Shown here: positions 1,009 to 8,987 of the stretch, piece by piece
How the letters are laid out: the number at the start of each line of letters is the position of its first letter
Position numbering within the stretch: position 1 is the first letter of the stretch
From: a virus
Taxonomy: Duplodnaviria > Heunggongvirae > Uroviricota > Caudoviricetes
DNA length: 8,987 nucleotides
IMG/VR virus record: IMGVR_UViG_2617270951_000015
Coordinates: 1-8,987 of that record
Strand: one strand, 5' to 3'
The notes under the pieces: model-generated
What the model saw: the letters and a program-made list of their open reading frames with translations, nothing else
What the model was told of the DNA's origin: nothing
The model's database searches: none
Program-made: the position numbers and the translations under genes

Positions 1009-1083
1009 GTCCTCTTAGTTAAATGGATATAACGAGCCCCTCCTAAGGGCTAATTGCAGGTTCGATTCCTGCAGGGGACACCA
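1009..1083 (+). tRNA. argW: tRNA-Arg (anticodon CCU)
   Basis: 75-nt cloverleaf read directly: acceptor GTCCTCT/AGGGGAC (one G-U), D-stem GTTA/TAAC, anticodon stem AGCCC/GGGCT with loop CTCCTAA (anticodon CCT), T-arm GCAGG-TTCGATT-CCTGC, discriminator A plus encoded CCA. Confidence 0.9.
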
Positions 1084-1244: not shown

Positions 1245-2402
1245 ATGCTCACCGTTAAGCAGATTGAAGCAGCAAAGCCGAAAGAAAAACCATACCGCCT
1301 ACTCGATGGTAATGGCCTGTACCTTTATGTCCCTGTGTCAGGGAAAAAGGTATGGCAGCTTCGCTACAAGATTGACGGTAAGGAGAAAATCCTGACCGTA
1401 GGAAAATATCCGCTAATGACTTTGCAGGAGGCAAGGGATAAGGCATGGACTGCGAGGAAAGACATCTCGGTTGGCATCGATCCGGTAAAGGCGAAAAAGG
1501 CTTCGTCTAACAACAATTCCTTTAGTGCGATTTACAAGGAATGGTACGAGCACAAGAAGCAAGTATGGTCAGTAGGGTATGCGACTGAACTTGCAAAAAT
1601 GTTTGATGACGACATTTTACCTATCATCGGCGGCCTTGAAATTCAGGATATTGAGCCGATGCAACTGCTGGAAGTAATCCGCAGATTTGAAGATCGCGGT
1701 GCAATGGAGAGAGCAAATAAAGCCCGCAGAAGATGCGGCGAGGTTTTCCGTTACGCTATTGTTACTGGTAGGGCTAAATATAACCCGGCACCTGACCTTG
1801 CTGACGCCATGAAGGGATACCGCAAGAAAAACTTCCCGTTTCTTCCTGCAGACCAGATCCCGGCATTTAACAAAGCACTGGCAACATTTTCAGGAAGCAT
1901 CGTATCGCTCATTGCGACCAAAGTTTTACGCTACACAGCCCTCAGAACAAAAGAGCTTCGTTCCATGCTATGGAAGAACGTCGATTTTGAAAACAGGATT
2001 ATCACCATCGACGCCAATGTGATGAAGGGACGCAAAATTCATGTGGTTCCTATGTCAGACCAGGTAGTTGAACTTCTCACTATGCTAAGCTCAATCACCA
2101 AACCAGTATCAGAGTTTGTTTTTGCCGGGCGCAACGATAAGAAGAAGCCAATTTGCGAGAACGCTGTACTGCTTGTGATCAAACAAATCGGCTATGAAGG
2201 TCTGGAAAGCGGTCACGGATTCAGGCATGAATTCAGCACGATTATGAACGAGCACGAATGGCCTGCCGACGCCATTGAAGTGCAACTTGCACATGCCAAC
2301 GGCGGATCTGTGCGCGGGATTTACAACCATGCACAGTATCTCGATAAGCGCAGAGAAATGATGCAGTGGTGGGCGGACTGGCTTGATGAAAAGGTAGAGT
2401 GA
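1245..2402 (+). CDS. intS: Prophage tyrosine recombinase (P4-like integrase, IntS-type), apparently intact
   Basis: 385 codons from ATG 1245 (MLTVKQIEAAK...); N-terminal arm-binding region, C-terminal catalytic region containing the HxxR (HGFRHEF) and terminal tyrosine (GIYNHAQYLD) motifs; lies directly beside the tRNA. The ORF-track start at 1209 is a GTG 12 codons upstream; the ATG at 1245 matches the recalled IntS length. Confidence 0.9.
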   Translation: MLTVKQIEAAKPKEKPYRLLDGNGLYLYVPVSGKKVWQLRYKIDGKEKILTVGKYPLMTLQEARDKAWTARKDISVGIDPVKAKKASSNNNSFSAIYKEWYEHKKQVWSVGYATELAKMFDDDILPIIGGLEIQDIEPMQLLEVIRRFEDRGAMERANKARRRCGEVFRYAIVTGRAKYNPAPDLADAMKGYRKKNFPFLPADQIPAFNKALATFSGSIVSLIATKVLRYTALRTKELRSMLWKNVDFENRIITIDANVMKGRKIHVVPMSDQVVELLTMLSSITKPVSEFVFAGRNDKKKPICENAVLLVIKQIGYEGLESGHGFRHEFSTIMNEHEWPADAIEVQLAHANGGSVRGIYNHAQYLDKRREMMQWWADWLDEKVE

Positions 2403-2423
2403 GCGACCTTAAACTATCGAATA

Positions 2424-2458
2424 GCACAAAGCCTAGCAATCCAGTACAAAGCTTTGTG
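2424..2458. repeat. Inverted repeat CACAAAGC/GCTTTGTG enclosing a perfect 12-bp palindrome ACAAAGCTTTGT (2446-2457)
   Basis: Read directly, 22-56 bp downstream of the intS stop and followed by a T-rich stretch (tctcagttttgtc). Could be an intS terminator or a protein-binding operator; function not determinable. Confidence 0.3.
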
Positions 2459-2615
2459 TGTCTCAGTTTTGTCTAAGTGTTCTACTAAAACATAGTAAAA
2501 TCGGTAACGGCTGGAAATCATTCAATACTCGCACTATCGGAAGTTCACCAGCCAGCCGCGGTACGTTCTTACATACGATGTACCGCTGTTCTCTTTACGA
2601 TTTATAGCTGTACTG

Positions 2616-2948
2616 GTGAATTATGAGCAATCTGAATCCATGCATGACGTGTGGTGCCTGTTGTGCATTTTCCGCGTCTCTTTTTACTGGGCAGAAGCTG
2701 ACGATGCTGGCGGAAAGGTTTCGGTCAGTCTCACTGAGCAAATATCTCCTTTTCATCGCTGTATGCGCGGCACCAATCAGAAAAATCCCCGATGTGGCGC
2801 TCTTGCCGGCCCCCCCCGGAGAAAACGCATATTGCTCTGTTTACAAAAACCGTCCACATGCAGGGAATTCGCAATGTCCGGCGAAAATAGCATCGTAAAT
2901 GAAGCATGTAATCGCGCACGGGAAAAATATGGATTTCCAAAAATCTGA
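2616..2948 (+). pseudogene. Cysteine-cluster protein gene (YkgJ/UPF0153-like CxxCxxCC family by motif), disrupted by three frameshifts
   Basis: Protein-like segments alternate between the frames of ORFs 2623..2898 and 2616..2948: [16 protein letters not shown] | [49 protein letters not shown] | [12 protein letters not shown] | [32 protein letters not shown]. Joined they give a ~109-aa protein with CxxCGxCC and CxVYxxRPxxCRxF motifs. Frame switches sit at a T4 run (2668-2671), a C8 run (2810-2817) and an A5/ccgtcc stretch (2845-2856). Weak SD GGTGA before ATG 2623. Confidence 0.5.
2810..2817 (+). repeat. Homopolymeric C8 tract inside the Cys-cluster gene
   Basis: cccccccc at 2810-2817; the reading frame changes exactly across this tract. 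Confidence 0.9.
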
Positions 2949-3060
2949 ATATTCTCCGCCGTGCAAAAATGCGAACAACATCACTTCACTAATCAACCTG
3001 ACATGGCATACTTAGCACGCTAACTATGATAACAAACTAATACCCTAAAACTCATGGTTC

Positions 3061-3087
3061 CGGGACTGGTCGTGGTCCCGTTTTTTT
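3061..3087. terminator. Intrinsic terminator between the convergent Cys-cluster gene and the tfa-like gene (strong on plus, possibly bidirectional)
   Basis: Stem CGGGAC(UG)/(UG)GUCCCG (3061-3080) followed by T7 (3081-3087) on the plus strand; on the minus strand it is preceded by A7 and lies directly after the stop of the downstream gene (3090). Confidence 0.6.
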
Positions 3088-3089
3088 AT

Positions 3090-3698
3090 TCAGCCAGCAG
3101 GCCATCCAACAACGTAACTGCGGATCGCCTTCAGCTCTGTCAGCGCCTCAACCTCTGCTTTCATCTGCAACTGCCGTGTATTAATCTCCACCCCCTTCGC
3201 AAACATCGCCTGCTCTGTCGCATCCGACAGGGCTATGATGTCTGCCGCCGTCACCGGCACCACATTATTATCCCCGTCGGTCCAAGCAAAACCTTCCGGA
3301 AGACGGTTATTCTCTGCCATCAGGCGTGTCATGCTTATCCTGGACAACGTCTTCTTGCCGTAATCCCAGTTCCTTCCGTTGAATTCCATCATGTATTCCA
3401 TATTCTCCTGCACATCACGCCAGATATTAATCTCTTCCCTTTTCGCCGCTTTTGCCGCTTCCAGTACTGCTTCCGTGGCGACAAAGGCACTCACACTTCC
3501 GTACGTTCCTGCTGTCAGCCCAGACCACAATGCTTTTCCGTGTTCTGTATTATCCGTTTCCGTTGCAGTATACGGCAGCCATACCTGTTCCCCTTTTTCA
3601 TTCACCGCGTCTTCAAACTGCACCTCACAGTTTATCCCGCCATATTCGTTGCTGGCTGCATTTCGTACTGCAAGAATCTCTTTTCCCTTATCCACCAT
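3090..3698 (-). CDS. Putative tail fibre assembly/chaperone-like protein (family uncertain), 202 aa
   Basis: ORF placed immediately downstream of the tail fibre gene. Start chosen at ATG 3698 (MVDKGKEIL...) because a strong SD GAGGAGG sits 2 nt upstream and overlaps the stf stop (TAG 3707-3709). The ORF-track start at 3785 would overlap stf by 79 nt. Function is inferred from position only. Confidence 0.6.
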   Translation of the reverse strand: MVDKGKEILAVRNAASNEYGGINCEVQFEDAVNEKGEQVWLPYTATETDNTEHGKALWSGLTAGTYGSVSAFVATEAVLEAAKAAKREEINIWRDVQENMEYMMEFNGRNWDYGKKTLSRISMTRLMAENNRLPEGFAWTDGDNNVVPVTAADIIALSDATEQAMFAKGVEINTRQLQMKAEVEALTELKAIRSYVVGWPAG

Positions 3699-3706
3699 GA
3701 CCTCCT

Positions 3707-5035
3707 CTATGATATGCGCTGAAATAATCCTGCCTGTCTGATACCCGGAGATGATGTCCATAGCATCGGACCACATGCACGCCACGTGCCCGGTAAACGG
3801 GTCTCCCCCACATTACCGGAAGCAACCAGGGGAGTACCATCCGAAAGGCAACATGCAGACAGTGATGAGCCGGCAATGGCTGAGCCCGGTGCCATATCCC
3901 CCGAATAACTCGTCGCATAATATGCCGCAAGGACAAAAGAACCGACACCAAACAGTCCGCTGTCAGGACTTCCTGACGGTCCCTGAGGTCCTGCCGGACC
4001 TGCGGCTCCCGTATCTCCTTTTGGCCCCTGAGGCCCTGCCTGACCTGCGGCTCCCGTATCCCCTTTTGGCCCCTGTGGTCCTGCCGGGCCTGCAGCTCCC
4101 GTATCTCCCTTTGGCCCCTGAGGTCCTGCCGGACCTGCGGCTCCCGTATCTCCTTTTGGCCCCTGAGGTCCTGCCGGGCCTGCAGCTCCCGTATCTCCCT
4201 TTGGCCCCTGAGGTCCTGCCGGACCTGCGGCTCCCGTATCTCCTTTTGGCCCCTGAGGTCCTGCCGGGCCTGCAGCTCCCGTATCTCCCTTTGGCCCCTG
4301 AGGTCCTGCCGGACCTGCGGCTCCCGTATCTCCTTTTGGCCCCTGAGGCCCTGCCTGACCTGCGGCTCCCGTATCCCCTTTTGGCCCCTGAGGCCCTGCC
4401 GGGCCTGCGGCTCCCGTATCCCCTTTTGGCCCCTGAAGCCCTGCCGGGCCTGTATCCCCCTTGTCGCCCTTCGGTCCCTGTGGTCCGCCCGGATCGCCCT
4501 GCTCACCTTTCGGACCTGTATCCCCCTTATCGCCCTTGTCACCTTTATCCCCTTTCGGCCCCGGTGGCCCTGCCGGGCCTGTATCGCCCTTGTCCCCCTT
4601 CTGTCCCTGTGGACCAGTTGCTCCGGTGTCGCCTTTCAGTCCCTGTGGCCCCACGGCAGTTTCGGCTTTCTCAGCAGCTTCTCGCGCCCTGCGCACAGCC
4701 TCATCCGCCGCCGCTTCCAGCTTCTTCAGTGCATCAGGATAATACGCTGCATCCGTTTCACGGAGCAGAAAGGCATTCAGGGTGCCCGGTTCGTCGTCGG
4801 CCATGACATCAATCTCGCCGGCGCATGCCGGCTGACGACCTTCCACGCACAAGGTCACACGATAACGCCCCGGCTCAACCTGCATGCTGTAACTGCCCGT
4901 TTCGCCTGGCTGGTGCTCTGCCACCGTGGTGACTATCACCGTCTCACTCGTTCGCGTGGCTTTCAGCTCTATGGTGCAGTCCGGTACCGGTTTTCCTGTA
5001 CCATCCTTCAGCACACCTGAAATCTGTACTGACAT
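3707..5035 (-). CDS. stf: Side tail fibre protein with a long collagen-like (Gly-X-Y) stalk, 442 aa, apparently intact
   Basis: N-terminal ~90 aa ([17 protein letters not shown]...CTIELKA...) resemble the recalled N-terminus of lambda Stf; residues ~128-345 are uninterrupted Gly-X-Y triplets, including about ten [15 protein letters not shown] units; distinct ~95-aa non-collagen C-terminal domain. Purine-rich SD GGGGGGAA before the ATG. Confidence 0.85.
3982..4476. repeat. Tandem 45-bp repeat array (about 11 units) with a 90-bp higher-order unit repeated three times at 4072-4341
   Basis: Read directly: units begin at 3982, 4027, 4072, 4117, 4162, 4207, 4252, 4297, 4342, 4387 and 4432. Two unit variants (cctgccggacctgcggctcccgtatctccttttggcc and cctgccgggcctgcagctcccgtatctccctttggcc) alternate. 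Encodes the collagen-like stalk of stf on the minus strand. Confidence 0.9.
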
Positions 5036-5808
5036 ATTCCCCCCACAAAAAAGCCCACCAGAACCGGCGGGCTGTCATAACTCTGTGTTACCTGGCTATG
5101 GTAGTTCACCGTCATCTGCTGACCACCAAACTGCTCCGCATCCACCTGCATCCCCACAATGGCCGTGTTCGGGTAGCACTGTTTCACATCGATGATTTCG
5201 GTGTATGACGACCACAGCGTTCTGTTCTGCAGCTGGTCCGTGGTGCTGTCCGCCGTCTCCCTGACCATCCGGATGTTAAAGGGGCGGGGAGGCAGATTAT
5301 CCAGAATCACCGAGGCCAGGAACTGTGAGGTGGTCTTGCCGTTAATGGTGACATCCTTTTCTGTCACCCAGTTACCGTTACGCTGTAACTGAATCAGCAG
5401 ACGGACAGAGGACGGATTACGGTCACCCTTTGACGTGGTCTCCACCAGTGACTGCACCCCGAAGGTCACCCGCAGGCGGTCAATGTTCGCTGACGTAATG
5501 GTGCGTGTTACCGGTTTTGCCCTGGTCACTTCGACACCCAGTACAGTTTCAGAGCCGGAGGACTCAAAGCCTTCCGGTGGTGTCTGCTCCTGCTCCCCGG
5601 CACGCCAGACCGCGGTCACACCGTGTATCACGGGATTACCGTCCGTGTCCGTCAGCGGGGTTTTGTTCACCAGAATACTCTGCAGGCTTTTCACCGGGCC
5701 TTCTATCGGTCCCTCACCAATCGCATCAATCACGCTCATCATCTGCGTGGATTTGAGATTGTCTTTCGCCTCACGAGGCGTGTGTGCCTTACCGCCACCT
5801 TTTCCCAT
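5008..5808 (-). pseudogene. J: N-terminal fragment of a lambda J-like central tail fibre / host specificity protein
   Basis: First ~235 aa (MGKGGGKAHTPREAKDNLKSTQ...NIRM...QLQNRTLWSSYTEIIDVKQCYPNTA...NYH) follow the recalled N-terminus of lambda gpJ (~1130 aa). After NYH (about 5095-5100) the ORF runs out of frame through the stf upstream region and stops at 5008. SD GGGGAAGG before the ATG at 5808. Confidence 0.8.
5047..5072 (-). terminator. Terminator-like hairpin plus U6 immediately upstream of the stf start
   Basis: Minus strand: GCCCGCC-ggttct-GGTGGGC (7-bp stem, one G-U) followed by TTTTTT, then GTGGGGGGAAT-ATG(stf). Plus-strand coordinates: stem 5053-5072, A-run 5047-5052. Confidence 0.45.
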
Positions 5809-5921
5809 ACAGCCTTCCCCTGAATAAATTAACCGCCACTTGCCATTCCGTACAGAAGTCGGATATCCTTCGCCCGAAAAGCATGAAACACATTTCTGCC
5901 ATGCTAAAGAGAAACCCCGGT

Positions 5922-5957
5922 ATCAGCAGATACCGGGGTTTTCTTTCATGCCCACCG
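5922..5957. terminator. Strong GC-rich hairpin with T-rich flanks on both strands (candidate bidirectional terminator) in the I-J insert
   Basis: Perfect 12-13 bp stem AAACCCCGGTATC / GATACCGGGGTTT (5922-5934 / 5939-5951) with loop AGCA; followed by TTTTCTTTC on the plus strand and TTTCTCTTT on the minus strand. Confidence 0.45.
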
Positions 5958-6013
5958 ATAATCCTGTTGGTTAAAACCGGTAATGGCATAAAAATTCTGA
6001 ATATCTTCACATT

Positions 6014-6041
6014 TTCACAAACTGACCGTGGCGCGTATAAT
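6014..6041 (+). promoter_or_regulatory. Candidate sigma70 promoter inside the I-J intergenic insert
   Basis: -35 TTCACA (6014-6019), 16-bp spacer, perfect -10 TATAAT (6036-6041); no ORF follows on the plus strand. Confidence 0.45.
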
Positions 6042-6047
6042 TTCTCT

Positions 6048-6144
6048 GCGTTAATTTTTTTGTCGTGATATAAGAATAATTCCTTACACTTAATCTTCGT
6101 AACTCTCCCGCAGTTCCTGTCCGCGATCACTGCGGGATTTTTTT
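6048..6144 (+). ncRNA. Candidate small non-coding RNA (~95 nt) defined by the promoter at 6014-6041 and the terminator at 6106-6144
   Basis: Predicted TSS about 6048 and 3' end at the T7 tract. No ATG-initiated ORF in the interval (only a GTG followed by an immediate stop). Convergent with, and ending beside, the 3' end of the I-like gene. Purely a sequence-based prediction. Confidence 0.3.
6106..6144 (+). terminator. Intrinsic terminator (plus strand)
   Basis: 9-bp stem TCCCGCAGT / ACTGCGGGA (6106-6114 / 6129-6137) with a 14-nt loop, followed by T7 (6138-6144). Confidence 0.55.
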
Positions 6145-6151
6145 ATTCTTT

Positions 6152-6817
6152 TTACCCCTGCCGCCCGATAACCACGACCTTTCCGCCCCCGCCTTCATCA
6201 CGGGTGCTGATGTCCTGGGATATACGGCGGGAGCCAACCAGCATTTCCCCGTAAGGCACCGGCATCGGGTTCCCCTGGGCAATCATGTTATCCAGCGAGG
6301 AAAAGTACGTGTTCTGTCTGCCGTTATCCGTTGCGCGGTAATCCGGTGTTTTTGCCTTCGGGGCCAGCATCTGGGCCACACCGCCCAGTATCATGCTGGC
6401 ACCCAGTGAAAACAGCATCGTGGTGGCAGAAAAACCACCGGCACTCAGGGCTGTACCCCATAACGCCATCGAGCCTCCGGCCGTGAAGAAAGAGCCCACG
6501 ATGGCTGCCGCCCCCAACACAATCTGCAGTCCACCCTTTCCGGCCCCGGCCAGTCGCGGCACAATGTGGATGACCGTTCCCTCACCCAGCTGTTCGTGAA
6601 GGCGGGCGTACACCACCTCCGGTGCCGTGTCTTCACCGGCAATACGTATCTGGTACCAGCCTTCGTTCATCTGAAGGCGAAAGCCCGGCATCTGCATCGA
6701 CAGGGCGCGAATGGCTTCCGCTGCCGTGTTCACATACAGGCTGAGGCGGCGGCCAAATCGTTGTAAATCCCCGTGGTTGCCCACGGTTGAGCCAGAGATA
6801 ACAGCTTCCACCATCAT
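6152..6817 (-). pseudogene. I: Lambda gpI-like tail assembly protein, N-terminally truncated
   Basis: From GDLQRFGRR onward (minus-strand codons at about 6772 down to the stop at 6152) the protein follows recalled lambda gpI (…IRIAGEDT…IHIVPRLAGAGKGG…FSLGASMILGGVAQMLAPKAKTP…NTYFSSLDNM…PVPYGEM…VVVIGR). The first ~15 codons of the ORF (MMVEAVISGSTVGNH) are out-of-frame FII sequence; the gpI N-terminus is missing. Confidence 0.8.
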
Positions 6818-7103
6818 CCGGCGAAACCCGGTCTATCCAGAAGTTTTCCTCACCGATGGTCAGCGTGTCTCCACGCCGCAGTTGCCGCACATCATCAGTC
6901 CGGACAAACAGGGACGGGCTGGAGCCTTCAACGCGCACGCCCTGTCCGGCATAGCTGATATTTTCAGGGTCATCAAAAACACCACGTATTACTGCGCCGG
7001 ACTGCTCACCGGATGTCATGGTGGCTGACGTTCCCATGTACCCGCGTATCGTTTCATCGGCGCGGGCAATGGCAGCATCGAACAGGTTATCGAAATCAGC
7101 CAC
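6633..7103 (-). pseudogene. FII: Lambda gpFII-like head-tail joining protein, C-terminally replaced by out-of-frame I sequence
   Basis: Residues 1-~108 (MADFDNLFDAAIARADETIRGYMGTSAT...DRVSPDDGGSCYLWL-RG) follow recalled lambda gpFII (117 aa); the remaining ~48 residues read the I gene out of frame. GTG start at 7103 preceded by SD GGGAGG. Confidence 0.75.
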
Positions 7104-7114
7104 AGCGCCTCCCG

Positions 7115-7510
7115 TTATTGCATTCTGGCCAGGCCGCGCTCTGTCATTTCAGCTGCCACACCGGCAGAGACACGGAACGCCGTTCCCGGCAGCACAAATG
7201 CCACAGTGTCATCCCGCGTGGCGTGAAGTGCATCAGTATGCAGCGTCACCAGTGCCACGACCGTGACCAGAGCAGCCGTATCAATCACGGTATCCGGCTG
7301 CGCTGATACCACCTCATTTTCATGTCCGGTCAGCGCATTTTCCGGGCTGACAGATGTGTCCTGACCGGCAGCGTCATCCGTGTCATCAAGCTCCTCTTCC
7401 AGCTCTGCCACACGGAGCACCAGTTCTTCTTTCGTCCCCGTCAGGCTGACATCACGGTTCAGTTGCTCACCCAGCACCTGAAGACGGGCAATCAGTTCAT
7501 CTTTCGTCAT
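7115..7510 (-). CDS. FI: Lambda gpFI-like DNA-packaging/head assembly protein, apparently intact (132 aa)
   Basis: MTKDELIARLQVLGEQLNRDVSLTGTKEEL...AFRVSAGVAAEMTERGLARMQ closely follows recalled lambda gpFI. Start set at ATG 7510 (SD GGAGGAG 3 nt upstream) rather than the longer ORF start at 7549. Confidence 0.8.
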   Translation of the reverse strand: MTKDELIARLQVLGEQLNRDVSLTGTKEELVLRVAELEEELDDTDDAAGQDTSVSPENALTGHENEVVSAQPDTVIDTAALVTVVALVTLHTDALHATRDDTVAFVLPGTAFRVSAGVAAEMTERGLARMQ

Positions 7511-7531
7511 GGACTCCTCCACAGAGAGAAA

Positions 7532-7549
7532 ATGGCCCCGAAGGGCCAT
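7532..7549 (-). other. Perfect 7-bp hairpin with a UUCG tetraloop between the E stub and FI
   Basis: ATGGCCC-ttcg-GGGCCAT on the minus strand, followed by TTTTCTCTCTG and then the FI SD. Could be an attenuator or stabilising structure; function not established. Confidence 0.35.
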
Positions 7550-7551
7550 GA

Positions 7552-7830
7552 TTACGCCAGTTGTACGGACACGAACGCATCAGGATCAGCCAGCAGCATC
7601 AGCGGTGCTGACTGAATCATGGTGAACTCACGCGCCGGATCGCCGGTGGTCACCCAGTTTTTCGGGTAGCGGGCAGAGGCGTTAATACCTTCGCGCTGTG
7701 CGTCCGCATCCTGAATGCAGCCATAACGGAAGCCCTTCACCGTAGGCCATGCCGTTGGACTGTCCGGCAAGCACAACCACGTAGAACCAGTCCGGCTCAG
7801 ATGAAGGGCCGACCTGTGGATCTCCTTCAA
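7552..7830 (-). pseudogene. E: C-terminal fragment (about 58 aa) of a lambda gpE-like major capsid protein
   Basis: YGCIQDADAQREGINASARYPKNWVTTGDPAREFTMIQSAPLMLLADPDAFVSVQLA is the recalled C-terminus of lambda gpE (341 aa). Homology runs from about 7725 down to the stop at 7552; the upstream part of the ORF is out-of-frame nanS-like sequence. Confidence 0.8.
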
Positions 7831-7975
7831 TAGCCACCGCCTGCATCAGTGTGTACGGCGTAATGGCAACCGGTCCGCCATATGGCTGCCAGCCCTCTTT
7901 CAGTTTGTGTGTCAGCTTTTCCGCAAGGTCTGACGGCGACGCCGCCCTGACAACATCATAGTGTTTAAATGCCAT
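7682..7975 (-). pseudogene. nanS-p: N-terminal fragment (about 84 aa) of a prophage NanS-p-like sialate O-acetylesterase (DUF1737 region plus start of the SGNH/SASA domain)
   Basis: MAFKHYDVVRAASPSDLAEKLTHKLKEGWQPYGGPV...DWFYVVVLAGQSNGMAYGEGLPL carries the GQSN esterase motif and a recalled NanS-p type N-terminus. Homology stops at about 7726, where the E stub begins in another frame. SD GGAGG before the ATG at 7975. Confidence 0.65.
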
Positions 7976-8168
7976 GAATCCTCCCGGCCGGGATAATATT
8001 GTGAGTAAAATGAGGAGCGGGCTGAAGTCCGGAAGTTACAGGACAATGGCAGAAGAGAGACAACAGCCCGCAATACGAAAAAGGCCGCACTATTGCGCAG
8101 AGTGATTACTGTCGGATATTATTCGCCAGCTGAAATATTACTTCACGTTTTGTTGTTTATTCCTTGCC

Positions 8169-8196
8169 GCCCGCGTCTCCCTGCGCGGGCTTTTTT
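8169..8196 (+). terminator. Intrinsic terminator (plus strand) in the tRNA-nanS spacer
   Basis: Stem GCCCGCG / CGCGGGC (8169-8175 / 8184-8190) with an 8-nt loop, followed by T6 (8191-8196). A second perfect 8-bp hairpin AGCCCCTC-cgga-GAGGGGCT sits at 8208-8227. Confidence 0.55.
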
Positions 8197-8423
8197 GTCC
8201 ATAAGAAAGCCCCTCCGGAGAGGGGCTGGAGAGTGGCGCTATGTGCCATTGCATGGTGCCGGGTGCCTCCCGGTGAATTCAGTACCAGCACCTGAATCCG
8301 CGATTATCCCATATACCTACTCGCTGATTGCCCCTCCGCACAGGGGGATTCACCATGCCAGTTTCTTTTAACAAACTCCCCGCAAAACAGACAACTGTCA
8401 ACCGTCTGAATTGTGAGACATTT

Positions 8424-8449
8424 AAAAAAAAGGCCCGCAAAAGCGAGCC
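8424..8449 (-). terminator. Intrinsic terminator ending the minus-strand tRNA operon
   Basis: Minus strand: GGCTCGC-tttt-GCGGGCC (one mismatch in 7 bp) followed by T8 (plus-strand A-run 8424-8431), 15 nt after the 3' end of the last tRNA. Confidence 0.5.
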
Positions 8450-8463
8450 AGGGAAAATAAGTG

Positions 8464-8540
8464 TGGCGCGTTGTACTGGATTCGAACCAGTGACCGATTG
8501 CTTAGAAGGCAATTGCTCTGTCCGGCTGAGCTAACAACGC
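8464..8540 (-). tRNA. tRNA-Arg (anticodon UCU)
   Basis: 77-nt cloverleaf on the minus strand: GCGTTGT-TA-GCTC-AGCCGGACA-GAGC-A-ATTGC-CTTCTAA-GCAAT-CGGTC-ACTGG-TTCGAAT-CCAGT-ACAACGC-G-CCA; all stems perfect. Corresponds to one of argN/argO of Stx-type phages (which name is uncertain). Confidence 0.85.
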
Positions 8541-8553
8541 AGGATACAGATAA

Positions 8554-8630
8554 TGAACCGCCTTCGGGGACCCGAACTCCGCGCAACCAGCTTCGAAGGC
8601 TGGCGCTCTTTCCTGATGAGCTAATGGCGG
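8554..8630 (-). tRNA. tRNA-Arg-like (anticodon UCG), atypical and possibly degenerate
   Basis: CCGCCAT-TA-GCTC-ATCAGGAAA-GAGC-G-CCAGC-CTTCGAA-GCTGG-TTGCG-CGGAG-TTCGGGT-CCCCG-AAGGCGG-T-TCA. D and anticodon arms are perfect, but the acceptor stem has one A-A mismatch, the T-stem has one A-C mismatch, the T-loop has G where the near-invariant A58 is expected, and the 3' end reads TCA rather than CCA. Confidence 0.5.
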
Positions 8631-8637
8631 TATGTGA

Positions 8638-8713
8638 TGGTGGCCCTTGCTGGATTTGAACCAGCGACCTGGCGATTATGAGTCGCTCGCTCTCACCACT
8701 GAGCTAAAGGGCC
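8638..8713 (-). tRNA. ileZ: tRNA-Ile2/Met (anticodon CAU), ileX/ileZ-like
   Basis: 76 nt: GGCCCTT-TA-GCTC-AGTGGTGA-GAGC-G-AGCGA-CTCATAA-TCGCC-AGGTC-GCTGG-TTCAAAT-CCAGC-AAGGGCC-A-CCA. Close to the recalled E. coli ileX sequence, so probably the lysidine-modified AUA reader; the isotype cannot be proven from sequence alone. Confidence 0.8.
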
Positions 8714-8722
8714 GGGAGCAGA

Positions 8723-8751
8723 ATAATAATGGTGCGTAATTAATTCTGCAA
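8723..8751 (-). promoter_or_regulatory. Candidate sigma70 promoter for the tRNA operon
   Basis: Minus strand: -35 TTGCAG (8751-8746), 17-bp spacer, -10 TATTAT (8728-8723), about 9 nt before the 5' end of the first tRNA; lies directly after the methyltransferase stop (8763). Confidence 0.4.
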
Positions 8752-8762
8752 TCTCATCCGTT

Positions 8763-8987
8763 TCAAACGATTAAATCCTGAACTTCCCTGACTGTCTGCT
8801 CAAAACGTCCGGTCTCCAGTTCAACGCCAATCGCACGACGCCCGAGCGCCAGTGCCGCTTTTACCGTTGAACCTGAGCCCATAAAAAAATCTGCAACCAG
8901 GTCACCCGGACGACTGCTCGCGCTGATTATCTGCTGCAGCATTTCTGCCGGTTTTTCGCACGGATGTTTCCCGGGATAGAACTGCAC
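8763..8987 (-). CDS. DNA methyltransferase (beta-class N6A/N4C amino-MTase), C-terminal 74 aa only; gene continues beyond the right window edge
   Basis: Open to the window end. Motif IV-like HPCEKP precedes motif I-like FFMGSGST, the motif order of beta-class amino-methyltransferases. Whether the full gene is intact cannot be judged. Confidence 0.7.
   Translation of the reverse strand: MQFYPGKHPCEKPAEMLQQIISASSRPGDLVADFFMGSGSTVKAALALGRRAIGVELETGRFEQTVREVQDLIV

Follow-up and report, generated by a model that had tools for sequence, protein, structure and literature searches.

The window, that is, the whole stretch of DNA analysed here (8,987 nucleotides), is an exact substring of its source contig (GCA_000704905.1 JNRX01000020.1, L008). 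Positions 1-2474 consist of yfdC-argW-intS and are 97.9% identical to Escherichia coli K-12, in which yfdG/H/I follow; the initial annotation had placed the next gene of the window in an integrase-proximal cargo slot equivalent to that of yfdGHI, and this comparison bears it out. The slot is framed by the following features:

1009..1083, plus strand: tRNA-Arg(CCU), argW, the prophage attachment locus (tRNA/Rfam scan, K-12 comparison)
1245..2402, plus strand: IntS-type tyrosine integrase, 385 aa in the source contig (Pfam; 97.9% to K-12 intS; gene call in L008)
3090..3761, minus strand: DUF4376 tail-fibre-assembly gene, convergent with the pseudogene described below (Pfam, gene call)

The genes downstream are on the minus strand and comprise the DUF4376 tail-fibre-assembly gene, a collagen-repeat tail fibre gene, a J fragment, I, FII, FI and a capsid E remnant. 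Positions 5008-8987 hold the J fragment, which is 266 aa long and includes an FNIII-A domain, and then I, FII and FI. Capsid protein E is reduced to its last ~54 residues, directly followed by a DUF1737 gene and a fragment of a DNA methylase. Three phage-borne tRNA genes (Arg-TCT, Arg-TCG and Met-CAT) are located at 8464-8713 on the minus strand, and the sRNA family STnc100 has a full-length match (RF02076, 139 bits) at 8197-8387, also on the minus strand. The prophage part of the window lacks terminase, portal and most tail genes. Because most of the tail and head genes are missing, the element is regarded as an eroded lambdoid prophage. An otherwise 100% identical IMG contig (L016) is without 1,405 nt of the window (3692-5096), a stretch that takes in most of the collagen-repeat tail-fibre gene and the beginning of the tail-fibre-assembly gene. 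The gap is either genuine or the product of repeats collapsing in the assembly.

The slot itself has the layout of an accessory cassette, in that a lone gene separates the integrase/attachment end from the tail fibre genes, lies on the strand opposite to the tail genes and is accompanied by a terminator-like hairpin of its own; this placement recurs in other prophages. Two overlapping plus-strand open reading frames (ORFs) are found there. Frameshifts were located by aligning the DNA with an uninterrupted homologue that encodes the 109-aa protein WP_032169753.1 (2501-2830 of L006, E. coli 14EC001). The reading frames, lesions and family-matching segments are listed below; segment coordinates overlap where the frame switches.

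2616-2948, plus strand: ORF with GTG start, 110 aa
2623-2898, plus strand: ORF with ATG start, 91 aa
2623..2948, plus strand: pseudogene, prophage-borne ykgJ paralogue (YkgJ family, PF03692), from alignment to intact L006 and K-12 ykgJ, the PF03692 score of the repaired product and frameshift calls from PGAP, the NCBI annotation pipeline
2668..2671, plus strand: lesion 1, T5 to T4 (-1), from alignment to L006; K-12 ykgJ also has T5
2810..2817, plus strand: lesion 2, C7 to C8 (+1), from alignment to L006, the intact sister allele having C7
2850..2855, plus strand: lesion 3, CCGTCCGTCC to CCGTCC, that is, (CCGT)2 to (CCGT)1 (-4), from alignment to L006
2623-2670, plus strand: segment 1 of the family-matching reading, in the frame of 2623
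2670-2816, plus strand: segment 2, in the frame of 2616
2812-2856, plus strand: segment 3, in the frame of 2623
2853-2948, plus strand: segment 4, in the frame of 2616

The pseudogene is 326 nt long, compared with 330 nt in intact homologues, and differs from the intact L006 gene by exactly three indels, every one of them at a repeat. That a product of about 109 aa emerges only from four segments in two frames, as had been proposed from the sequence, is confirmed by this alignment, and so are the frame-switch sites at T4 (2668-2671) and C8 (2810-2817). For the third site the A5 run and the CCGTCC at 2845-2855 are present as described, whereas the slip itself is not in the A5 run; the lesion is the loss of one CCGT unit, mapped to 2850-2853. 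Lesion 1 shifts the frame after codon 16, immediately 3' of the CxxCxxCC motif. Apart from the C8 tract of lesion 2, the window has no run of C or G as long as 7 nt.

The 91-aa product from ATG 2623 retains the native first 16 residues, including CxxCxxCC, plus a short native stretch; 48 residues in the middle of the protein are scrambled, and the tail is both scrambled and truncated. We infer that this product is non-functional. One point runs against reading the gene as dead: the 48-codon out-of-frame stretch contains no stop codon, for which the chance is ~0.1.

When the three indels are repaired, the 109-aa translation matches Pfam family PF03692 (CxxCxxCC, UPF0153) with 43.2 bits (E=6.8e-11) over profile positions 1-85 of 85, against a gathering cutoff of 23 bits. 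Without repair, the 91-aa ORF scores 16.4 bits, below that cutoff, and the 110-aa ORF has no PF03692 match. Since the repaired translation passes the cutoff, the DNA descends from a member of the YkgJ family, and the locus is a pseudogene of that family rather than a gene for a member protein. The suggested similarity to YkgJ/PF03692 thus holds over the full length of the profile. Both cysteine motifs reported earlier, CMTCGACC and a second motif of 14 residues, are found in the repaired product. C7, C10, C13 and C14 are in frame from ATG 2623, and C47, C58, C71, C81 and C97 are regained only on repair, which gives nine cysteines in the intact ancestor, including the N-terminal CxxCxxCC.

Intact YkgJ paralogues are a common cargo of E. 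coli prophages: 640 contigs encode the sister protein WP_032169753.1, and 503 encode a second uninterrupted allele of 109 aa. Neither ORF product of the window has an exact match among ~15 billion proteins. A scan of the repaired and unrepaired products against NCBIfam gave no family match, and a PDB sequence search with an intact homologue gave no match. The repaired protein is neither a catalogued phage family nor a defence component, with no matches in PHROGs and PADLOC scans. A tblastn search of 50,697 phage records found coliphages with only 5' or 3' fragments of the gene, the only full-length relatives being in two Acinetobacter phage records (48% identity). A pattern scan of one genome per species returned zero matches.

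Relative to K-12 ykgJ the repaired gene has a dN/dS of 0.09 at a dS of 1.15, which indicates a functional and long-separated paralogue before breakage; on these substitution rates the gene had long been held by purifying selection before it was disrupted. Between the repaired gene and its closest intact lineage (lineage A, see below) there are 9 synonymous and 7 non-synonymous differences, and the resulting dN/dS of 0.20, which comes from only 16 substitutions, is not clearly neutral. The ancestor may have been a small metal-binding protein (Fe-S or zinc), most plausibly carrying an Fe-S cluster, to judge from its relatives. A transposon study has linked ykgJ to filamentation in biofilms.

Of 5,426 complete E. 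coli genomes, 5,259 contain sequence related to 2400-3100 by megablast. The matches are mostly 80-90% identical; ~160 records exceed 90%, and these are annotated as "YkgJ family cysteine cluster protein" and adjoin a DUF4376 gene. Copies of the gene were gathered from complete E. coli genomes, IMG/VR viral contigs, metagenome contigs and the source contig, and they split into two allele lineages. Lineage A has T5 and two CCGT units. Lineage B, which includes the window, has T4 and a single CCGT in 18 of the 18 copies gathered. Lineage-B prophages are located beside btsS, paoD, tRNA-Ser/hyaA and argW, and further copies are on IMG/VR and metagenome contigs. The pseudogene and the 3' part of the tail-fibre-assembly gene (~180 nt, to 3272) form one block with 96-97% identity among lineage-B prophages.

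A partly deleted copy, kept out of the 18 counted, is present beside yecD in E. coli O104:H4 outbreak strains (L007 2629-2889); it has T4 and an extra internal deletion of 68 nt that removes the C tract, and in the PGAP annotation it is divided between two features, a pseudogene and a 61-aa 'YkgJ family' protein.

The C tract is a hypermutable simple repeat inside the gene, 6-11 nt long across copies. In lineage B the lengths are 6 (five copies), 7 (two), 8 (five), 9 (three), 10 (one) and 11 (one), plus one interrupted tract, CCCTCCCC, with a variance of 2.3. Lineage A has 7 in twelve copies and 8 in two, with a variance of 0.13 (C7 versus other lengths between the lineages, Fisher p=4e-5). 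K-12 ykgJ reads GGAACCCCGGG at this site, and most intact prophage alleles encode GTPG there, in both cases without a homopolymer. The aligned alleles show that the tract originated in an ACC to CCC substitution (GTPG to GPPG). Lengths held in frame by selection while a gene works and drifting once it is dead are the pattern expected, and the greater spread in lineage B supports relaxed constraint after inactivation.

With a C6 or C9 tract the C-terminal third regains its native frame, and the gene reads as a single long ORF whose middle is scrambled; these lengths occur in 8 of 17 lineage-B copies, against ~1/3 expected, an excess that is not significant. In two C6 alleles (L001 3129-3452 and L003 3026-3349) the indels sum to -6, leaving an uninterrupted 107-aa ORF with native ends, which PGAP still calls frameshifted. 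In two lineage-A copies from potB-adjacent prophages (L004 and L033; 2 of 10 lineage-A copies in complete genomes) C8 is the sole lesion, and it represents either inactivation in one recent step or a miscalled homopolymer.

The upstream region and the boundaries of the gene contain the following features:

2475..2494, no strand: junction; CPS-53 homology ends at 2474 and ykgJ-locus homology begins at 2495
2495..2622, plus strand: upstream region homologous to the K-12 ykgJ/ecpE intergenic region (~95% over 130 nt before the ATG)
2558-2586, plus strand: inverted repeat, 7 nt, perfect (GCGGTAC ... GTACCGC, 15 nt apart), from the sequence
2615-2619, plus strand: ribosome-binding site GGTGA, from the sequence
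3061..3087, plus strand: terminator-like GC-rich hairpin followed by a T7 run (consensus scan only), between the pseudogene and the convergent tail-fibre-assembly gene

Positions 2495-2932 are 85% identical over 443 nt to K-12 ykgJ and the 128 nt upstream of it. The identity is mosaic, ~97% for 2495-2712 (the upstream part and the first 90 nt of the gene) and then 70-80% for 2713-2932, and this unevenness suggests a recombinant 5' end. Position 2712 is also the homology endpoint with Stx-phage remnants and with E. coli STECUZB006, in which intS and a ykgJ 5' stub are followed by the effector gene nleC; by these shared endpoints it looks like a recurrent recombination junction. The inverted repeat at 2558-2586 is also found upstream of K-12 ykgJ and could be a regulatory or recombination site. 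A sigma-70 consensus scan detected no promoter-like site upstream of the gene, and an Rfam scan gave no match in 2400-3100. The sRNA EcsR2, which is encoded beside K-12 ykgJ, was considered and set aside as irrelevant, being downstream of ykgJ, where the homology of the window has already stopped (at 2932, inside the gene).

One alternative is that the locus is kept for a function other than that of YkgJ. The broken cassette is widespread over many prophage sites, which counts against a simply dead gene, and its DNA may be kept for an upstream promoter or attachment-site sequence. The high identity to K-12 of the 128 nt upstream and the first 90 nt would agree with this, as would the published ykgJ/ecpE-derived prophage attachment sites and the mild, non-significant surplus of in-frame C6/C9 alleles. 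Against it, neither ORF product occurs in the collection of ~15 billion proteins, the region has neither an Rfam match nor a promoter consensus, and homology to the K-12 intergenic region ends 128 nt upstream of the ATG. The spread of the dead gene is explained by hitch-hiking on the block that it shares with the tail-fibre-assembly gene, and retention for another function is considered highly improbable.

The same low standing is given to a phase-variable contingency gene, in which slippage of the C tract would switch a functional product on and off, one of the options raised by the initial annotation. The range of tract lengths invites such a reading, as does the presence of C7 (on) and C8 (off) alleles at the same potB-adjacent site in the otherwise intact lineage. 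Comparison of the tract across copies speaks against it: a change in repeat length alone is powerless to toggle the product while two other fixed frameshifts flank the tract. Because T4 and the single CCGT are fixed, no lineage-B tract length rebuilds the protein, whose middle third stays scrambled, and the YkgJ fold is beyond rescue by any of them; the spread of lengths resembles drift. C7 is moreover dominant in the intact lineage (12 of 14), and the tract is absent from K-12 ykgJ and most intact prophage alleles, so that switching is not a property of the YkgJ family.

A combined form of these ideas is very unlikely: the intact C7 allele (of the WP_032169753.1 type) would be a slippage on/off switch, based on the two alleles at the potB site, and/or the broken lineage would be kept as a landing site or promoter, based on the ykgJ/ecpE-derived attachment sites in prophages documented by Nakamura et al.

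The least credible alternative is an artefact, with the gene intact in the organism and the three indels being homopolymer sequencing or assembly miscalls: all three sites are prone to slippage or miscalls and the C8 of the two lineage-A copies from complete genomes could partly be platform error, but the T4 and single-CCGT lesions are shared by all 18 lineage-B copies, which come from unrelated assemblies and include the complete genome of E. coli 55989 (L005), loss of a 4-nt repeat unit is atypical of homopolymer error, and the identical allele is present in a distinct strain. This last observation comes from two IMG contigs with the same intS junction and an identical pseudogene, C8 included; in one of them, L022, the 4.3 kb of flanking DNA has 50 SNPs relative to the window, so that this contig comes from a different strain. 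Sequencing error is excluded for the T4 and single-CCGT lesions and very unlikely as the source of C8, and the gene is broken even if the C tract is miscalled, since the two other lesions remain. The earlier suggestion that homopolymer errors hide an intact protein is thus discarded.

Positions 2623-2948 of the window are best explained as a dead copy of a prophage-borne ykgJ paralogue, an inherited pseudogene, with a probability of about 90%. The initial annotation had recognised slippage-type indels in a cysteine-cluster gene and had left open whether pseudogenisation, phase variation or sequencing error was responsible; only the first stands, with T4 and the single CCGT fixed throughout lineage B and near-identical copies labelled by PGAP as "YkgJ family cysteine cluster protein, frameshifted". 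The intact ancestor would have been a 109-aa cytoplasmic protein carried by lambdoid prophages as a single-gene accessory cassette, in the slot from the attachment/integrase end to the tail-fibre-assembly gene. The C tract was probably made first, by the ACC to CCC substitution. The change from T5 to T4 and the loss of one tandem CCGT would then be slippage mutations that became fixed in the lineage of the window, after which recombination would have carried the broken cassette from prophage to prophage along with the neighbouring 3' end of the tail-fibre-assembly gene. After the death of the gene the C tract would have been free to lengthen or shorten, the C8 of the window being present by chance. 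Decay of an accessory gene fits the eroded state of the prophage. The locus provides a clean case in which one substitution creates a homopolymer and its length drifts after gene death.

Among known systems, K-12 CPS-53 shares the chromosomal site and the integrase, and its cargo also follows directly after intS and precedes minus-strand tail-fibre-assembly genes. The cargo itself (yfdG/H/I, gtrABS-like) is unrelated to that of the window, and homology stops 72 nt past the intS stop codon. K-12 YkgJ (b0288, NP_414822.1), a 'putative metal-chelating domain-containing protein', belongs to the same family and has the same length (109 aa), and its CxxCxxCC and other cysteines are conserved in the repaired product. 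The K-12 gene is chromosomal, between yagU and ecpE, intact and without a C tract, whereas the copy in the window is prophage-borne and broken; as dS (~1.15) is near saturation, the latter is a long-separated paralogue of K-12 ykgJ and not a recent duplicate.

The only relatives found with a tested function are FliB and DpdM, which may serve as leads for the chemistry of the ancestor alone. In FliB, a flagellin lysine methyltransferase, an N-terminal cysteine motif holds a [4Fe-4S] cluster for methyl transfer (PMC8598068); the protein is far larger, and its motif reads CX4CX3CC. DpdM, a phage preQ1 methyltransferase, is described as a YkgJ homologue (bioRxiv 10.1101/2023.04.13.536721) and belongs to DUF3109.

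Prophage sequence derived from ykgJ/ecpE serves other prophages as an attachment site, the 96-bp att-in-PP_2, according to Nakamura et al.; in the window, homology to the K-12 intergenic region between ykgJ and ecpE is limited to the 128 nt adjoining the gene. H0002 of VT1-Sakai (Sp15), deposited as 'similar to E. coli K12 YkgJ', is ~84% identical to window positions 2488-2712 and is located at the same prophage end, between dinI or an attachment site and the tail fibre genes. It retains nothing beyond the first ~100 nt of the gene and the sequence upstream, and the cysteine codons are mutated; it represents an independent decay, further advanced than that of the window gene.

The lineage-A proteins WP_032169753.1 and WP_071528431.1 are encoded in the same cassette order, the gene followed by a convergent DUF4376 gene. 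Their genes are ~95% identical to the window at the nucleotide level, with 7 amino acid differences after repair and a common origin of the C tract, but they are uninterrupted (T5, C7, (CCGT)2), and their upstream sequence, 165 nt after potB, is unrelated to that of the window. Several RefSeq frameshifted pseudogenes, among them EC55989_RS29525 (E. coli 55989), AC3XMD_RS08685, FVP48_RS10710 and I5Z76_RS08985, carry the T4 and single-CCGT lesions of lineage B; their identity to the window is 96-99%, and they adjoin the 3' end of the same tail-fibre-assembly gene. They differ in the tract (6, CCCTCCCC or 11) and in their sites, being preceded by dinI or IS5 and not by intS. A feature of this kind is thus already known and annotated as frameshifted YkgJ in RefSeq, and with near-identical copies already flagged in this way the locus is an ordinary one. 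Its significance is mainly one of annotation: no hidden intact metal-binding protein is to be inferred, and the correct label, in line with the RefSeq pseudogenes, is a YkgJ-family pseudogene and not two hypothetical ORFs.
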